From: Alphaproteobacteria bacterium
Lineage (GTDB): Bacteria; Pseudomonadota; Alphaproteobacteria; Geminicoccales; Geminicoccaceae
Assembly: GCA_026984595.1 (NCBI GenBank)
Contig: JALSRW010000405.1
Location: forward strand, 1 to 43,835
Length of the DNA stretch: 43,835 nt
Reading direction: 5' to 3'
The position numbers were made by a program, and so were the translations under genes. Shown one piece after another: positions 2,986 to 16,959 of this stretch (within the stretch, counting starts at the first letter, position 1; each line of letters starts with the position of its first letter). The notes beneath the pieces were generated by a model. It ran no database searches. It had not been told where the DNA came from and was given only the letters and a program-made list of their open reading frames with translations.

Positions 2986-3150
2986 TCAGGCCCTCGCTAG
3001 CTCGAGCGGGAAGCGCAGGGTGCGGCCTACGGCCCGGGCCTGCAGGTACATGTCGCGCCGGCAGAGCCAGCGGCCGTAGCGGGCGGCGTTGCGGCGGGTC
3101 TGGATATCAGGCTGGTGTTGGCGGATCACGAATGACTGAAGTGGGTTCAT
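2986..3150 (-). CDS. First gene of the leftward early operon, 54 aa hypothetical
   Basis: My translation is MNPLQSFVIRQHQPDIQTRRNAARYGRWLCRRDMYLQARAVGRTLRFPLELARA. CAGGAGGAACCGCC precedes the ATG at 3150-3148, directly downstream of the PL-like promoter. Confidence 0.55.
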   Translation of the reverse strand: MNPLQSFVIRQHQPDIQTRRNAARYGRWLCRRDMYLQARAVGRTLRFPLELARA

Positions 3151-3178
3151 GGCGGTTCCTCCTGATGACTATGGGAGA

Positions 3179-3221
3179 AACATAGCAACCGAAAGTTGCT
3201 ATGTCAACAACCGTGGGTTGT
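3179..3221 (-). promoter_or_regulatory. PL-like early-left promoter with two operator palindromes
   Basis: On the minus strand: TTGACA (3207-3202), 17-nt spacer, TATGTT (3184-3179). The spacer contains GCAACTTTCGGTTGC (3185-3199). A second related palindrome, ACAACCGTGGGTTGT, is at 3207-3221. Confidence 0.7.
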
Positions 3222-3296
3222 GTTTTTATGTGCAATAAGGCATATATGTGCTTTTGGTGGGCTGGAGGGGGAGGGCTGTGGGGGTGGTGTGGGAAG

Positions 3297-3345
3297 CGGA
3301 TATACTGATAGAGATAGAGTTTTTGTTGCGTTATTCGGATATACT
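3297..3345 (+). repeat. Direct repeat CGGATATACT x2 (39-bp spacing) in an AT-rich spacer upstream of the methyltransferase gene
   Basis: Copies at 3297-3306 and 3336-3345. Each contains a TATACT -10-like hexamer. A G-rich tract at 3256-3293 precedes them. Confidence 0.5.
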
Positions 3346-3419
3346 CGCAGCACTCAATAAAGTAATACTCTTATTCTGGTTTTTGTCTGAACAGTTTCGC
3401 CACAACAACAAAAAAGTGG

Positions 3420-4541
3420 ATGACGTTTCGTGAGTATCGAACGAAGACGGCTCATGAACGGACGATGCGACCGAAAAACGACATGAAGAAAATCGCTTGC
3501 GTCGATCTCTATTGCGGCGTAGGCGGACTTTCCTATGGCCTGAAGAAGGCCGGGGTGAACGTCGTTGCCGGAATCGACGTGGACGAGAGCTGCAAGTGGG
3601 GATACGAGCGCAACGTCGAGGCGCGTTTCGTGCGGGCCGACGTCGCCGATCTGAGCGGAGACGATCTGTGCGAGCTCTTCCCTCCGGCCGAACATCGTCT
3701 GCTCGCCGGATGTGCGCCGTGCCAGCCGTTTTCCACTTACGGCAGAACGCGGCAGGGTTCCGACGACAGGTGGTCGTTGTTGCGCGAGTTCTCGCGCCTG
3801 GTCGAAGAGACGAAGCCGGAGTTCGTGACCATGGAGAACGTGGAAGGACTCGCCTCTCATCGCGTGTTCGGCGAATTCCTGGAAACGTTGGAAGAATGTG
3901 GTTATGCCGTCGCTCATGGTGTGCTGGCGTGCGAACGGTTCGGCGTTCCGCAGCGGCGGCGGCGTCTGGTGCTCGTGGCGTCACGCATCGGCGACGCCGT
4001 CCTTCCAGAACCTGATGGCGGGTCGCCGCGGACGGTAAGGGATACGATCGAACGATTGCCGCCAATCGCCGCAGGCGGCGGGCCTTGCGATAGCGACCGT
4101 TTTCACGTCGCCGCCGGTCTTTCCGAGCTGAATCTGCGTCGCATCCGCAATTCCGTCGAGGGTGGTTCATGGCGGGATTGGCCGAAAGAGCTTCGGGCTC
4201 CGTGCCACCGGCGCGAAACCGGCGCCACGTATCCGTCCGTGTACGGCAGGATGCGCTGGGACGAGCCTGCGCCGACCATCACCACCCAGTGTTATGCCTA
4301 CGGCAGCGGTCGTTTCGGACATCCTGAGCAGGATCGCGCCATCTCGCTGCGCGAGGCGGCCATGCTCCAGTCGTTCCCGTCGAACTGGGAGTTCGTGCCG
4401 CCGGGAGAGGAGATCCATTTCGCCACCATCGGCCGCGCCATCGGCAACGCCGTGCCGCCGAAGCTCGCCGAGGCCGTCGGCCGCACGATCATCACGCTTT
4501 CGGAAGCTGGAAGATCGCCGCGAGCCGATGCCGTAGCGTGA
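3420..4541 (+). CDS. DNA (cytosine-5)-methyltransferase (start possibly 3465 or 3483)
   Basis: Motif I DLYCGVGGLS, motif IV GCAPCQPFS, motif VI TMENVEGL, QRRRR, and C-terminal GNAVPP. Confidence 0.92.
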   Translation: MTFREYRTKTAHERTMRPKNDMKKIACVDLYCGVGGLSYGLKKAGVNVVAGIDVDESCKWGYERNVEARFVRADVADLSGDDLCELFPPAEHRLLAGCAPCQPFSTYGRTRQGSDDRWSLLREFSRLVEETKPEFVTMENVEGLASHRVFGEFLETLEECGYAVAHGVLACERFGVPQRRRRLVLVASRIGDAVLPEPDGGSPRTVRDTIERLPPIAAGGGPCDSDRFHVAAGLSELNLRRIRNSVEGGSWRDWPKELRAPCHRRETGATYPSVYGRMRWDEPAPTITTQCYAYGSGRFGHPEQDRAISLREAAMLQSFPSNWEFVPPGEEIHFATIGRAIGNAVPPKLAEAVGRTIITLSEAGRSPRADAVA

Positions 4542-11814: not shown

Positions 11815-12396
11815 GTGGCGAGACGAAACATCAACGGCCTGACGCCGAAGCAGCAGGTCTTCTGCGATCTGTTTCGCGCCAGCGAGGATCCGTCCGTGCG
11901 GGGCAATGCCAAGGCCTGCTACATGCTGGCCTACGGGGCGTCGGACAAGAGCGCTGAGGCCAACGGGCCGCGCCTGCTGAAGAATCCGCACGTGGCCGAG
12001 TATCTGGCCACCAAGCGGCAGGCGGCGGAGGAGAAGGCCGACGTGAGCGAGGAGCGCATTCTGCGCGAGGTGGCGGCCATCGCGTTCCTGGACCCGGCGG
12101 AGTATTTCGACCCGCACGGCAATCTGTTGCCCATCCACGAGATGCCGGAACGGGCACGCCGGGCTCTGGCCTCGGTGGAGGTGACGACGATGGGCAAGGA
12201 TGCCGAGGCCCTGGTGACGAAGATCCGGAACTGGGACAAGAAGGGCTCCCTCGAACTGCTGATGAAGCACAAGAAGATGCTCACCGACAAGGTGGAGCAC
12301 GGCGGGGAGATCAAGACCGGCGGCGTGCTCGTGGCGCCGGGTGACGTGAGCCTGGACGAATGGCTGAACCAGCATTACGGCAAGAACAAGAAGTAG
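11815..12396 (+). CDS. Terminase small subunit
   Basis: GTG start. N-terminus NGLTPKQQVFCDLF...AYMLAYG...A..NG.RLLKN..V..YL is the Terminase_2-type pattern. Lies directly upstream of terL. Confidence 0.85.
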   Translation: MARRNINGLTPKQQVFCDLFRASEDPSVRGNAKACYMLAYGASDKSAEANGPRLLKNPHVAEYLATKRQAAEEKADVSEERILREVAAIAFLDPAEYFDPHGNLLPIHEMPERARRALASVEVTTMGKDAEALVTKIRNWDKKGSLELLMKHKKMLTDKVEHGGEIKTGGVLVAPGDVSLDEWLNQHYGKNKK

Positions 12397-14609
12397 AAGT
12401 CGTCTGGCAGCCGTTCCCGGGCGGCCAGACGCGCTTTCTGTCCTGCCCGGTGCGGGAGATCTTCGCGGAGGGGAACCGGGGCGGGGGAAAGACCGAAACC
12501 CTGCTCATGAAATACCTGCGCTACGTGGGGACGGGGTTCGGGGCGGCGTGGACGGGGATCATCTTCCGCCGGGAGTACAAGCACCTCGACGACGTGGTGA
12601 AGAAGTGCAAGCGCTGGATCCCGCAAATCTTCCCCGAGGCCCGCTGGCTGAGCGCGAAAAGCGACTACAAGTGGGTGTTCCCCGACGGCGAAGAGCTGTT
12701 CCTGCGAGCGATGAAGGACCCGGACGATTACTGGAACTACCACGGCCACGAGTATCCCTTCATCGCCTGGGAGGAGCTGACCAACTGGCCGAGCAACGAT
12801 TGCTACGAGGTGATGAAGAGCTGCAATCGCTGTTCGGTGAAGGGCGTGCCGCGCTTCTACGTTTCCACGGGAAACCCCTACGGGGCCGGCCACGGCTGGG
12901 TGAAGGAGCATTTCATCGACATCGGGCCGGAAGGGACGGTGGCGACGGACGACCAGGGCAACGCCCGGGTGCGCATCCATGTGGACCTGGAAGACAACCG
13001 GGCGATGATGGAGAACGACCCGGAGTACGTGAAGCAGCTCGACGGGATCGAGAACCCGGAGCTGCGCAAGGCCTGGCGCGAGGGCGACTGGGATATCGTG
13101 GTCGGCGGGTTCCTGCAGGGGATCTGGAACCCGAAGGTGCACGTGGTCGAGCCGTTCGAGATTCCGCTCGACTGGCCGCGCTGGCGGGCCATGGACTGGG
13201 GCTTCGCGGCGCCGTATTCCATCGGCTGGTACGCGATCAGCCCGGAGGGGGTGGTGTACCGCTACCGGGAACTCTACGGCTACGGCGGCAAGGCGGGGGT
13301 GGGCACCCGGGAGTCGGCCACGGAGGTGGCCAGGAAGGTGCTGGCGGCGGAGAAGCGCGAGCGGGATGCCGGGGTGGTGTTCCGGCGCAATCCGGCCGAC
13401 AGCCAGATCTTCGCCAACGACGGGCGCGAGAAGACCATCGAGGAGTATTTCCGCCGCGAGGGCGTGCGCTGGGTGAAGGCCACGAAAGGGCCCGGGTCTC
13501 GCGTGAACGGGGCGCAGGCCATCATCCAGGCGCTGCAGCAGGAGAAGTTCAAGGTCTTCGACACTTGCGTGCACTTCATCCGCACCGTGCCGGTGCTGAT
13601 GCCCGATCCGCACAACTGGGAGGATGTGGATACGGAGATGGAGGACCATTGCTTCGTCGGCGATACGCAGGTGATGACGGACGAAGGGCCTGTGGCCATC
13701 CGGGACCTGGTCGGGCGGTCCGGCAGGGTGGTGTCGGTCGACGGCTTGCGGCGGTTCGCGCATTGCAGGATGACACGCAGGACCGCCAGCGTGGTCACGG
13801 TCAGGTTCGAGGATGGCACGCAGGTGACATGCACGCCTGACCACAGGTTCGTTGGAGTGAACGGGTGGATCGAGGCAAGATATCTGACGGGAAGAAGCGT
13901 GTGCATGTTGTCTCGGACACGATCCAGGAGTTCATGGGCGTCCGATACTACCTGTGCGGGAGATACTTCCAAAGGCGTGGCAGACGGCTTCATCGTGTCG
14001 TATGGGAAGCGCATCGCGGCAAGATTCCTTCGGGCTATCAAATCCATCATGTCGACGGCGACAAGCGCAACAATCAGATCGAGAATCTACAGTGTTTGCC
14101 GATCACCATCCATCAGCGTCATCACGCCAGGGAAAGAAGACTGCACGAGATCGGACGCAAGGCGGGTGCAACCGCCGCTGCGGCAAATTGGCACGGAAGC
14201 GAGGAAGGACGGCGATGGCACCGGGAGCACTACGAGAAGCATTTGCGCGCCATTCACACCGATCGCACGGTGGAAAAACAATGTCAGTTCTGTGGTGCGC
14301 CGTTTTTTACGACCAGGGCAGCGGCCGGACGTGCCATGTATTGCTCGAGACGCTGTGCGGCCGCTGCGGGTCGTCGCCGTAGAGCCGGCAGGCAAGTCTG
14401 ATGTGTATTGCCTGTCCGTGCCGGTGACGCACGCGTTTTCGCTGGCCAACGGGGTTTTGGTCTCGAACTGCTGGGACGAGGCAATGTATTCGCTGCGTTC
14501 CCGGCACAGGGCCTTGCGGCTGGATGAGGAGAACAGGGAACCGAAGCCGGGCACCTACGACTGGCTGATCAAGGTGACGTCGGAGAAACGGCGCACCATT
14601 CGCATCTGA
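12360..14609 (+). CDS. Terminase large subunit, interrupted by an intein (exteins 12360-13649 and 14469-14609)
   Basis: Walker A GNRGGGKT, WEELTNWP, a nuclease region, and the junction ...MEDH|C...N|CWDEAMY. Continuous 749-aa ORF, 476 aa after removing the intein. Confidence 0.9.
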   Translation: MAEPALRQEQEVEVVWQPFPGGQTRFLSCPVREIFAEGNRGGGKTETLLMKYLRYVGTGFGAAWTGIIFRREYKHLDDVVKKCKRWIPQIFPEARWLSAKSDYKWVFPDGEELFLRAMKDPDDYWNYHGHEYPFIAWEELTNWPSNDCYEVMKSCNRCSVKGVPRFYVSTGNPYGAGHGWVKEHFIDIGPEGTVATDDQGNARVRIHVDLEDNRAMMENDPEYVKQLDGIENPELRKAWREGDWDIVVGGFLQGIWNPKVHVVEPFEIPLDWPRWRAMDWGFAAPYSIGWYAISPEGVVYRYRELYGYGGKAGVGTRESATEVARKVLAAEKRERDAGVVFRRNPADSQIFANDGREKTIEEYFRREGVRWVKATKGPGSRVNGAQAIIQALQQEKFKVFDTCVHFIRTVPVLMPDPHNWEDVDTEMEDHCFVGDTQVMTDEGPVAIRDLVGRSGRVVSVDGLRRFAHCRMTRRTASVVTVRFEDGTQVTCTPDHRFVGVNGWIEARYLTGRSVCMLSRTRSRSSWASDTTCAGDTSKGVADGFIVSYGKRIAARFLRAIKSIMSTATSATIRSRIYSVCRSPSISVITPGKEDCTRSDARRVQPPLRQIGTEARKDGDGTGSTTRSICAPFTPIARWKNNVSSVVRRFLRPGQRPDVPCIARDAVRPLRVVAVEPAGKSDVYCLSVPVTHAFSLANGVLVSNCWDEAMYSLRSRHRALRLDEENREPKPGTYDWLIKVTSEKRRTIRI
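13650..14468 (+). mobile_element. Intein (273 codons) in terL
   Basis: Block A CFVGDTQVMT, block B TCTPDHRF, C-terminal VYCLSVPVTHAFSLANGVLVSN followed by Cys+1. The middle portion has no in-frame endonuclease domain. Confidence 0.85.
13865..14401 (+). CDS. HNH homing endonuclease encoded in the +2 frame inside the intein (likely start ATG 13934)
   Basis: LHRVVWEAHRGKIPSGYQIHHVDGDKRNNQIENLQCLPITIHQRHH (HNH_3-type) plus CQFCG...YCSRRC. AGGAG lies 3 nt before ATG 13934. Its own TGA is at 14399-14401. Confidence 0.75.
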   Translation: MDRGKISDGKKRVHVVSDTIQEFMGVRYYLCGRYFQRRGRRLHRVVWEAHRGKIPSGYQIHHVDGDKRNNQIENLQCLPITIHQRHHARERRLHEIGRKAGATAAAANWHGSEEGRRWHREHYEKHLRAIHTDRTVEKQCQFCGAPFFTTRAAAGRAMYCSRRCAAAAGRRRRAGRQV

Positions 14610-14632
14610 CCCGGCTCCGGCCGGGTTTTTTT
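14609..14632 (+). terminator. Intrinsic terminator right after terL
   Basis: ACCCGGC-tccg-GCCGGGT followed by a run of 7 T (the first T is paired). Confidence 0.75.
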
Positions 14633-14660
14633 CACCGGTGAAAACGACAGGAGAAAGACC

Positions 14661-14960
14661 ATGAGCCTCAATGTGAAGACCATCGCTTCCGCGCAGGGCG
14701 TGGGCAGTTCCGCGGCCGTGCGCATGGATACCACGCCCCACATGGCCAAGGATTCCGGCGTGGCCGTGATCCAGCCGGCCGCCGGCTCTGATCGCAACTG
14801 GGCGCTGGAGAAGTCGGTCGACGATGGCGCCACCTGGACCGCGGTGCTCTCGGGTTCCGGCGCGGCGCTGAAGATCGCCGAGGTGCAGATGGCCGAGCAG
14901 ATGCGCCTGACCGTGTCGGGCGGGACCGCCGGCACCGTCGATGCGCTGGTGATGGCCTGA
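14661..14960 (+). CDS. Small Asp-box (BNR-like) protein (99 aa)
   Basis: AGGAGAAAG upstream. Contains the motif SVDDGATW (SxDxGxTW). Confidence 0.65.
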   Translation: MSLNVKTIASAQGVGSSAAVRMDTTPHMAKDSGVAVIQPAAGSDRNWALEKSVDDGATWTAVLSGSGAALKIAEVQMAEQMRLTVSGGTAGTVDALVMA

Positions 14961-14973
14961 TCGAGGGCATGAC

Positions 14974-16959
14974 GTGAAGGATGCCGCCGACCGCGACCGG
15001 GACGGGATGACGGACGAGCCTGAACGCCGTCCGCATCGCGACCTGGTGCGGCGGTGGAACGGCCGCATCGACGAGGCGAAGAAGGGCAACCGGCGCCTCT
15101 ACGCGCAGATCGAGGAACACCGGCGCTACGTGCGCGGGACCCGCCGCTCGGAGTTGGGCGACGAGGAGCAGGTTCGCACGAATCTGATCTACGCGACGCT
15201 GGCCTCGATGCTGCCGCACATCTATGCGAAGAATCCGGAGATCGCGGTCACGCCCACGGAGGCGGTGGACCCCGCACAGTATCCGGCGGTGAAGGGCTTT
15301 GCGCGCACGCTGGAGATCGTGCTGAACCGCTCGCTCGAGGACGCCAGCCTCAAGAAGCGGGCCAAGGGCGCGGTGCGCTCGGCGATGACCACGAAGCTCG
15401 GCTGGGTGAAGGTGATCTACCAGCGCGACATTCGGACCGATCCGGTCATCCAGGGCCGGATCAACGATGCGCAGGAGAACATCCGGCGGATCGAGTACCT
15501 GATCGAGGCCTGCGAGGACGAGGCGGAGCGCCGGCACAACGAGGCGCTGAAGGCCGAGCTGATCCAGCAGGTGGCGGCGCTCGAGGAGCAGGTGGAGGTG
15601 AGCGCGGCCGAGGGCGTGGTGATCGACCGCCTGCTCACCGAGGACGTGCTCGTCGATCCGAGCATCAAGGATTTCGACTGCTACGCCGACGCGGAGTGGA
15701 TCGCGCACCGGATCTGGTACCGGCCCGACCGCTACGAGGAGGCCTTCGGCAAGGCGGCCGGCAGCAAGGCGAAGCTCTATTCGGCGGACGGCGCAGAGAA
15801 TGCCGGCGCCAAACGCTCGGACGACGACGCCTATCTGGCGGTGTGGGAGATCTGGCACAAGGGGTCGAACACGGTTTACACCCTCTGCGAAGGGGAGGAG
15901 GACTGGGCCAGGGCGCCGTATCGGCCGCAGAAGCTCGGCGAGCAGTGGTATCCGCTGTTCCCGCTGGGGCTGCACTTGGTGGACGGGCAGTTCCTGCCCA
16001 TGTCCACGGTGGAGATGCTCAAGGGCCTGCAGGACGAGTACGAGCAGACCCGGGCCGACTACGCGGAGCTGCGCGCCAAGAACAAGCCGCACTACGTGAC
16101 CAGCTCGGAGACGCCCGAGCGGGACATTCAGCGCAAGGTGGTGGCCGGGATCGGCGAGGTGGTGATCGTGGACGCCAACGGCCGGCCGATCCGCGAGGTG
16201 TTCGACGTGGCGCAGCAGTTGCCCATCGATCCGGCGCAATACGACACCAGCCAGATCCGGGCCGACATGGAGTGGATGTCGGGCCTGGGCGATGCGGCGC
16301 GCGGCTCGGTGATGCGGGCCAAGACCGCGACCGAGGCGGAGATCATGCAGGCTGGCCTGGCGAGCCGCACCACGGAGATGCAGGACGCCATCGAGGACTG
16401 GATCCGGGACATCGCGCAGTACGTGGCCGAAATCCTGCTGCAGGAGCTGACGCCGCCGCAGGTGCAGCGCATGGCCGGGGAAGGCGCGGTCTGGCCGCAG
16501 ATGCGCAAGGACGAGATCTTCGACCTGGTGCAGATCGAGATCCGCGCCGGGACCACCGGCAAGCCGAACAAGATCCAGGAGCAGAAGAACTGGCTGGAGT
16601 TCATGCCGCAACTGCGGGAGCTGATCGCGCAGGTGAGCGAGCTGCGCAAGGCGGGCGATGCGGAGACGGCGGACGCGCTGGTGCGCGTGGCCCGGGAAAC
16701 CATCCGCCGCTTCGACGAGCGCTTCGACGTGGAGGAGTTCCTGCCCCAGGCCGCGCAGGACGGCGGGCAGAACGCGCAGTTGCAGCAGATCCAGCAGCAG
16801 ATGGCGGAGATGCGCAAGCAAATGGAGTTGCTGGATGCGCAGATCCGCAAGACCAATGCCGAGGCGATGAAGTCGGAGGCGGAGGCGGCGGCCACGGCGC
16901 AGGGCGTCGGCATGCCCCTGCCTGCATCGCCGAGGCCCAGTGACGGGATGTTGCCATGA
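14974..16959 (+). CDS. Portal protein
   Basis: 661 aa, positioned after terL, with an acidic/helical C-terminus. GTG start with GAGGG upstream. The family was judged from size, position and general pattern. Confidence 0.8.
   Translation: MKDAADRDRDGMTDEPERRPHRDLVRRWNGRIDEAKKGNRRLYAQIEEHRRYVRGTRRSELGDEEQVRTNLIYATLASMLPHIYAKNPEIAVTPTEAVDPAQYPAVKGFARTLEIVLNRSLEDASLKKRAKGAVRSAMTTKLGWVKVIYQRDIRTDPVIQGRINDAQENIRRIEYLIEACEDEAERRHNEALKAELIQQVAALEEQVEVSAAEGVVIDRLLTEDVLVDPSIKDFDCYADAEWIAHRIWYRPDRYEEAFGKAAGSKAKLYSADGAENAGAKRSDDDAYLAVWEIWHKGSNTVYTLCEGEEDWARAPYRPQKLGEQWYPLFPLGLHLVDGQFLPMSTVEMLKGLQDEYEQTRADYAELRAKNKPHYVTSSETPERDIQRKVVAGIGEVVIVDANGRPIREVFDVAQQLPIDPAQYDTSQIRADMEWMSGLGDAARGSVMRAKTATEAEIMQAGLASRTTEMQDAIEDWIRDIAQYVAEILLQELTPPQVQRMAGEGAVWPQMRKDEIFDLVQIEIRAGTTGKPNKIQEQKNWLEFMPQLRELIAQVSELRKAGDAETADALVRVARETIRRFDERFDVEEFLPQAAQDGGQNAQLQQIQQQMAEMRKQMELLDAQIRKTNAEAMKSEAEAAATAQGVGMPLPASPRPSDGMLP

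Follow-up and report, generated by a model that had tools for sequence, protein, structure and literature searches.

The gene for the large terminase subunit (terL) on contig JALSRW010000405.1 (assembly GCA_026984595.1, positions 1-43,835 of the forward strand, 66% GC; this whole 43,835-nt stretch of DNA is referred to as the window) very probably carries a composite selfish element, in which a mini-intein is overprinted with a free-standing HNH homing-endonuclease gene (HEG). The class-1 mini-intein sits within the conserved terL nuclease motif EDH^CxDExxY, and its endonuclease-insertion loop houses an entire HNH_3 gene, which is read in the -1 (+2) frame from a start codon to a stop codon of its own. 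According to the proposed mechanism, ribosomes translating terL would read through the HNH gene and generate a linker of ~146 residues, probably unstructured and constrained only against stops, after which the Hint lobes would excise 273 residues to give a 476-aa terminase. The HNH protein would be made separately by internal initiation at GTG 13901 or 13865. Presumably it cuts intein-less terL alleles, such as that of locus L007 described below, near GAGGACCAT^TGCTGGGACGAG (carets mark insertion junctions), and repair would then copy in both the intein and the HNH gene (homing).

The features of the element, all on the + strand, are as follows (ORF, open reading frame; pLDDT, predicted local distance difference test score):

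12360-14609, +: terL ORF, 749 aa, with zero internal stops and terminase-large-subunit homology (PHROG)
12360-13649, +: terL N-extein, 430 aa, containing the ATPase and most of the nuclease domain and ending in ...DTEMEDH (PHROG matches; 94% identity to the intein-less P0023/L007; high pLDDT)
13650-14468, +: class-1 intein in the terL frame, 273 codons, Cys1...Asn273 and then Cys+1 (819 nt missing in L007; NCBIfam models)
13650-13910, +: Hint N-lobe, 87 aa, with Cys1 and block B TPDH (TIGR01445 over residues 1-67; 4o1r alignment)
13854-13867, +: candidate internal start, GGAG at 13854-13857, a 7-nt spacer and GTG 13865 (putative)
13901-14401, +: HNH_3 homing-endonuclease gene in the +2 frame, 166 aa from GTG 13901 (178 aa from GTG 13865), TGA at 14399-14401, overlapping the end of Hint-N (Pfam HNH_3)
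13911-14348, +: terL-frame "linker", 146 codons, S/R/T-rich, the read-through of the HNH gene (no recognisable domain)
14349-14468, +: Hint C-lobe, blocks F and G, ...DVYCLSVPVTHAFSLANGVLVSN (TIGR01443; alignment to the 4o1r and Npu DnaE inteins)
14469-14609, +: terL C-extein CWDEAMYSLRS... and stop codon, with Cys+1 inside the conserved nuclease motif (contiguous with the N-extein in L007)

Anatomy of the terL intein and of the HNH gene

A preliminary description of this DNA had reported an uninterrupted 749-aa terL ORF with the Hint blocks Cys1, TxxH and a terminal Asn followed by Cys+1. No internal stop was found at 12360-14609, and the blocks were recovered both by direct reading and with NCBIfam profiles. 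The intein segment reads ...DTEMEDH^CFVGDTQV...TCTPDH...VLVSN^CWDEAMYSLRS, and its splicing residues are C431, TPDH, N703 and C704 (intein, terL residues 431-703). In the terL frame, 13650-14468 scored above the cut-offs of intein_Nterm (TIGR01445; 40.8 bits, cut-off 24.5 bits) and intein_Cterm (TIGR01443; 19.4 bits, cut-off 15.6 bits), and fell just short of that of Pfam Intein_splicing (PF14890; 35.0 bits vs 35.8 bits). Once the linker was removed, the intein could be aligned over its full length with mini-inteins of known structure (DnaB 4o1r, E=1.9e-6; Npu DnaE). The linker, searched as a 148-aa peptide, matched zero Pfam families at E≤1, as expected from the earlier remark that it holds no recognisable domain. 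Splicing of this intein would be expected, since terL is essential and the splicing residues are conserved.

The exact boundaries of the insertion were given by the closest relatives. Among 5.8 billion proteins, the closest TerL was P0023 (94% identity, 474 aa), which is intein-free. Its DNA (L007) reads DTEMEDH^CWDEAMYSLRS, and the window corresponds to L007 plus exactly 819 nt at the junction, precisely the 273-aa intein at 13650-14468 that had been proposed. The site in the nuclease motif was likewise empty in the next relative, P0024/L009 (92% identity), so that both of the closest terL relatives lack an intein there. The terL gene of L009 (3001-5424; likewise in L010) has an unrelated, LAGLIDADG-containing intein elsewhere, located in the Walker A P-loop (NRGGGK^RLANDQ...FIVTHN^TETL); this intein may be of class-3 type because its first residue is Arg and not a nucleophile.

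The +2 frame is open over 13841-14401, and the ORF at 13865-14401, previously described as an HNH endonuclease, was recognised by Pfam HNH_3 (PF13392; E=2.8e-19, 68.9 bits, cut-off 24.8 bits) as well as by HNH families of PHROG. Every invariant column of the family is present in the window HNH (H31, H49, H50, N58, H71, H75, C128, C131 and C148), its AlphaFold model reached a mean pLDDT of 95.2, and its N- and C-termini line up with those of free-standing homologues. When the HNH profile was compared with PDB sequences, zero matches were obtained. The TGA at 14399-14401 lies inside the Hint-C coding segment, as had been pointed out before, ~50 nt from its beginning; therefore, a stretch of ~50 nt codes for two functional proteins.

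Two further properties of the HNH gene were recorded. The GC content at third codon positions (GC3) in its own frame is only 0.63 (13901-14398), compared with ~0.90 in neighbouring genes and 0.82 in the Hint lobes, and this low value could reflect either a compositionally foreign gene or the constraint of stop avoidance from the overlapping frame. Additionally, the C-terminal CxxC...CxxxC module (14280-14398, residues ~127-166) resembles the YacG zinc finger in the fold search (probability 0.97, target-normalised template modelling (TM) score of 0.58-0.67); it is probably the DNA-binding module of the HNH protein.

The translation start had been placed at an AGGAG-ATG at 13934, with a product of ~155 aa. 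This ATG is indeed in the HNH frame; as a start it is unlikely, given that the AGGAG spacer has just 3 nt and that initiation there would delete the conserved N-terminus VxV(V/I)SxTIQEF. Free-standing homologues start 2-5 residues ahead of this motif, and most embedded relatives have an ATG whose distance to the FxG anchor is exactly 12 codons, in many cases preceded by GGAGG or AGGAGG. In the window, GTG 13901 is placed 10 codons ahead of that anchor. Hence, GTG 13901 or GTG 13865 likely fits the HNH start better, and the predicted product would be 166 or 178 aa rather than ~155 aa. The sole promoter-like site that might drive the HNH gene (14253-14282) is inside the HNH ORF and wrongly placed.

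The HNH family and selection on the two frames

No relatives were obtained by blastn when 13400-14700 was compared with 50,697 phage genomes (zero matches). When phage genomes were searched by tblastn with the HNH ORF, homologues were detected beneath four annotated terL genes, those of Rhodobacteraceae phage LS06-2018-MD07, Tetrasphaera phage TJE1, Clostridium phage phiCDHM19 and Acinetobacter phage Highwayman, whose GC contents span 31-58%. In all four, terL is uninterrupted, the intein ends are of the form Cys...(S/H)N^C/S and the HNH lies at the +2 offset. The embedded HNH is unannotated in the four GenBank genomes (OP947163, HQ225832, LK985322 and OZ038341; L002-L005). The same +2 offset was seen in four diverged members of the window's own terL clade (L006, L110, L111 and L112). 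The best phage match was a free-standing HNH between terL and portal in Brevundimonas phage Poludnitsa (L001, ON529862, locus 3001-3444), also unannotated.

To cover the family more widely, 99 loci were collected from IMG/VR and GTDB genomes. The survey was seeded on HNH similarity alone, ignoring the host frame, with a narrow HNH alignment (A2), as the broad one (A1) had no sufficiently conserved stretch. In 78 of the 99 loci the HNH lies inside a terL intein but in a different frame: the host frame is HNH+1 in 52 of them (type 1, as in the window) and HNH+2 in 26 (type 2); the 21 remaining loci were classed as other. An in-frame HNH was found in none of the 99, nor was a long HNH-frame ORF, and 8 further terL genes yielded no in-frame relative. 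The host ORFs are terL genes with junctions of the form ...EDH^C...(H/S)N^CxDExRY, or ...DHA^C...HN^CDALRY one residue later, and in ~90 of the 99 loci the HNH goes together with an intein, whole or split, at a single site of terL. The later junction, DHA^C...HN^CDALRY, was noted in the type-2 loci L038, L039, L041, L052, L054, L056, L064, L065, L074, L078, L085-L087 and L107.

Of the 21 other loci, ~12 have a fractured terL, a state recognised with hidden Markov models built from the family's own Hint halves (among them L031, L034, L047, L057, L062, L070, L081, L089 and L098, with the HNH at ~3500-4000 in most). In these, the ORF for the N-terminal part of terL and the N-terminal intein half stops shortly past the Hint "GD" strand, a separate start codon serves the HNH, and the C-terminal intein half with the rest of terL restarts at an ATG overlapping the HNH stop (preceded by AAGGAGG in L070). 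With this layout, the intein would be of the split kind and its HEG of the HNH type. Truly free-standing HNH genes account for ~6 of the 99 loci, the Poludnitsa gene included. In the window, a second copy of either the HNH or the intein was looked for and none was found.

As to protein size, all 22 HNH homologues called as genes fall within 155-289 aa, and the best 150 of 1.84 billion representative proteins measure 157-395 aa, with one exception of 721 aa. The latter is not a Hint fusion; it has eight matched stretches, the best of which covers only the C-terminal portion of the profile (positions 123-208, the zinc-finger region). A shortened form was seen in L112 (1985-2314), where a shorter intein (terL of 671 aa) holds a 110-codon HNH-frame remnant that matches profile positions 17-101 and is devoid of the zinc-finger tail. 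The remnant has the appearance of an HEG that is decaying in this same lineage.

The stop-free state of the host frame was evaluated by keeping the HNH protein fixed, shuffling synonymous codons and counting host-frame stops over 35 type-1 and 14 type-2 loci. The number of stops expected was 80.2 in the type-1 and 141.4 in the type-2 loci, and the number observed was 0 in both. In AT-rich relatives, 5-12 host-frame stops were expected and zero were seen (P<1/3000, the level obtained for phiCDHM19 and Highwayman). The host frame of type 2 is intrinsically stop-rich, with 6-12 stops expected per locus and zero seen. This result is not circular, because the loci were collected without reference to the host frame.

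Furthermore, the pattern of conservation depends on the frame. Nucleotide differences in the overlap are most frequent at the third position of the HNH frame (0.449/0.419/0.644 for the three positions), and a third-position excess in the host frame is found across the family in Hint-N and Hint-C. In type 1, the amino-acid identity was 0.436 for the HNH frame, 0.236 for the host frame and 0.249 for the remaining, non-coding frame; the corresponding values in type 2 were 0.649, 0.401 and 0.403. In the window, GC3 of the terL frame is 0.90 in the extein, 0.82 in Hint-N, 0.83 in Hint-C and 0.62 in the overlap. Taken together, periodicity, identity and GC3 indicate that coding constraint switches frame twice along terL, and that the HNH is under purifying selection as judged from these substitution patterns. 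The linker is no better conserved than the non-coding frame and yet is stop-free; therefore, it is selected only against stops. Across the type-1 loci, similarity was 0.43 for Hint, 0.42 for HNH and 0.34 for the exteins. That the intein and its nuclease are more alike than the exteins is consistent with horizontal spread. Cleavage of the intein-less allele by the HNH protein would be in keeping with its sporadic distribution and tight link to the terL intein site.

Alternative explanations

Several observations weigh against a mini-intein with a functional, overprinted HNH gene in the window. The ATG conserved in the family is missing here, leaving GTG candidates only, with a modest Shine-Dalgarno sequence, and for this reason the window HNH may be poorly expressed or on its way to decay. 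The penultimate residue of the intein is Ser instead of the usual His, Ser being common in the relatives. In the AlphaFold model of the 749-aa precursor the extein is confident and the entire intein, including the Hint lobes, has pLDDT <50; since the score is low throughout, the model is not evidence of a disordered linker beside a folded Hint. The top Foldseek match of the HNH model, I-HmuI (1u3e), was not significant (E=0.17, TM 0.22). No co-conversion tract was evident next to the insertion when the window was compared with L007: identity stays at ~0.90-0.93 up to the junction, and its sole dip (0.68) is the variable C-terminal tail. Finally, for the window alone, a terL frame free of stops by chance has P=0.13-0.46, which is not significant. 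The preliminary description had rightly warned that the open frame is weak evidence by itself, and the statistical significance comes from the relatives only.

The preliminary description had left four explanations side by side, of which the free-standing HEG overprinted in a mini-intein is the one favoured by the start-to-stop match with free-standing homologues, the family-wide avoidance of stops and the unconserved host translation. A relic, in which one indel shifted an in-frame Hint-HNH-Hint intein, a second restored the frame and the HNH is dead, is highly improbable. Two indels could in principle yield such a geometry, and both the lost ATG of the window and the shortened remnant of L112 would suit it; the continuous Hint-HNH-Hint frame that had been suggested as a sign of it was nevertheless encountered neither in the 99 loci and the 8 additional terL genes nor in the 150 best representative proteins. 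In addition, coding periodicity is seen in the HNH frame, whose amino-acid conservation within the family amounts to 42-69%, indicative of purifying selection, all invariant catalytic and zinc-binding residues are kept in the window, and the ends of the ORF match those of free-standing genes. Two compensating indels in the contig, introduced by assembly or sequencing, can be practically dismissed, as the same layout occurs in the isolate phages TJE1, phiCDHM19, Highwayman and LS06-2018-MD07 and in dozens of independently assembled contigs from metagenomes and metagenome-assembled genomes.

Recoding is likewise highly improbable. It would involve a -1 shift after Hint-N and a +1 shift back before Hint-C, or a single -1 shift producing a fusion of the terL N-terminus, Hint-N and HNH. 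In its favour, the HNH frame is indeed displaced by -1 relative to terL, and it is already open at 13841, ahead of every start codon. Nevertheless, a slippery heptamer X XXY YYZ was not found in 13800-13935, and RNA folding near the frame junction and the HNH start is unremarkable (z=-0.53). Moreover, the 26 relatives with the opposite offset would need +1 and then -1 shifts, the relatives retain their own ATG, Shine-Dalgarno sequence and stop codon, and the same HNH is a separate gene in the split versions. It is also very unlikely that the HNH is a domesticated packaging accessory, of the type that helps cos cleavage, merely housed in the intein. Passages of PMC3592412 present HNH genes adjoining terminase genes as common in cos phages, and the closest free-standing relative, in phage Poludnitsa, does occur between terL and portal. 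Against such a role, the closest terL relatives (94% and 92%) have no HNH at the intein site, ~90 of the 99 members are bound to an intein or split intein at a single terL site, HNH_3 is a Pfam family of the I-HmuI-like homing type, and conservation is higher in the intein and HNH than in the exteins, fitting horizontal spread.

Known systems, neighbourhood and meaning of the arrangement

The architecture of a mini-intein overprinted with a nuclease gene has already been published for other nuclease families; what the present case contributes is breadth and numbers, and the principle is not new. In actinophage inteins, nucleases were described antisense or "in reading frame 3 relative to the intein" (Gosselin, Arsenault, Gogarten 2025; bioRxiv 10.1101/2025.01.02.630785), with the terminase large subunit as one of the four host proteins of these non-canonical inteins and many of the inteins located in terL. 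The authors proposed that they arose when a free-standing nuclease invaded an intein, and called the architecture rare and possibly transitional (Gosselin et al. 2025). As in the window, the intein is uninterrupted and its splicing blocks flank a same-strand homing-endonuclease ORF in frame 3 (+2), no recognisable structure results when the endonuclease region is read in frame, and the endonuclease is related to free-standing phage enzymes. The Keitabear intein of that study, translated here, showed the same layout, its frame-3 ORF matching Endonuclease_7 (PF02945, E=8.9e-20). The two groups differ in the nuclease, Endonuclease_7 there and HNH_3 (PF13392) here; in their hosts, actinophages only as opposed to phages and prophages of many phyla; and in that the family of the window is mostly overprinted (78 of 99), has two offsets and is never in frame. 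The possibility that the published actinophage nuclease belongs to the same family was rejected on the basis of the distinct Pfam families and of tblastn with the window HNH and the TJE1 HNH, in which phages of the usual SEA-PHAGES host genera were absent among the matches listed.

An out-of-frame nuclease has also been reported in a cyanobacterial dnaX intein (2026 preprint). Splicing and endonuclease activities are likewise in separate overlapping frames, the homing endonuclease is under purifying selection and secondary invasion of a mini-intein was proposed, whereas the host gene is dnaX of cellular cyanobacteria and the preprint makes no mention of HNH or terminase. The Synechocystis dnaX endonuclease was described as an antisense LAGLIDADG enzyme (Gosselin et al. 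2025). In fractured genes, a free-standing HEG separates the halves of a split intein; those found were GIY-YIG and Vsr-like, and fracturing by HNH was predicted but not observed (Dassa et al. 2009; PMC2677866). They share with the window the location of the HEG at the endonuclease-insertion point of the intein and the overlap of its 3' end with the coding sequence of the C-terminal intein half, but here the host frame has no stop and the intein is contiguous and would splice in cis. A phage DNA methylase with the ShiLan insertion likewise hides an out-of-frame HNH ORF (Arsenault et al. 2025; PMC11855218). That ORF starts with GTG, and the host frame runs through the insertion without a stop; the insertion has no detectable Hint or splicing domain, whereas both intein halves are present in the window. 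Canonical in-frame HNH and LAGLIDADG inteins also combine a homing nuclease at the standard Hint site with sporadic distribution and empty-site alleles, the difference being that their nuclease is a domain of the same polypeptide and that of the window a separate ORF in another frame.

Regarding the neighbourhood of terL, an upstream 193-aa ORF (11815-12396) overlaps its start (12360) by 37 nt. From synteny, it would be the small terminase subunit, because the equivalent ORF in L007 and L009 matches Terminase_2. Downstream, one further feature was recorded:

14608-14637, +: terminator-like hairpin (GACCCGGC...GCCGGGTT) and T-run, overlapping the last two bases of the terL stop codon

The hairpin is followed by a 99-aa ORF (14661-14960) and then by a large ORF (14974-16959), which by its position would encode the portal.

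What the family adds to the published cases is overprinting as the majority state, with both offsets, no in-frame fusion, strongly significant stop avoidance, and the coexistence of contiguous, split and free-standing forms. For annotation, it means that the HNH gene is invisible to gene callers, which call terL alone. For overlapping genes, it provides a clean case of a frame selected only against stops, with 0 observed vs >200 expected. For engineering, the suggestion is that a Hint domain can accommodate a linker of ~150 arbitrary residues at its usual insertion point. Concerning the origin of inteins, the family supports the view of "splicing first, nuclease invades later".

We would give an even chance to the idea that overprinting is a long-term stable, selected state of this HNH_3/terL-intein family, and not a brief step toward in-frame fusion. 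It is based on the 78 of 99 loci that are overprinted, with both offsets, never in frame and with ~42% HNH identity alongside a stop-free host, and on the coexistence of free-standing and fractured-terL forms of the same nuclease. If this is true, in-frame fusion would be selected against, for example because separate dosage or timing is favoured or because the extended HNH_3 fold is incompatible with folding of Hint, and the family would constitute a natural series of intermediates in the rise of split and mobile inteins.

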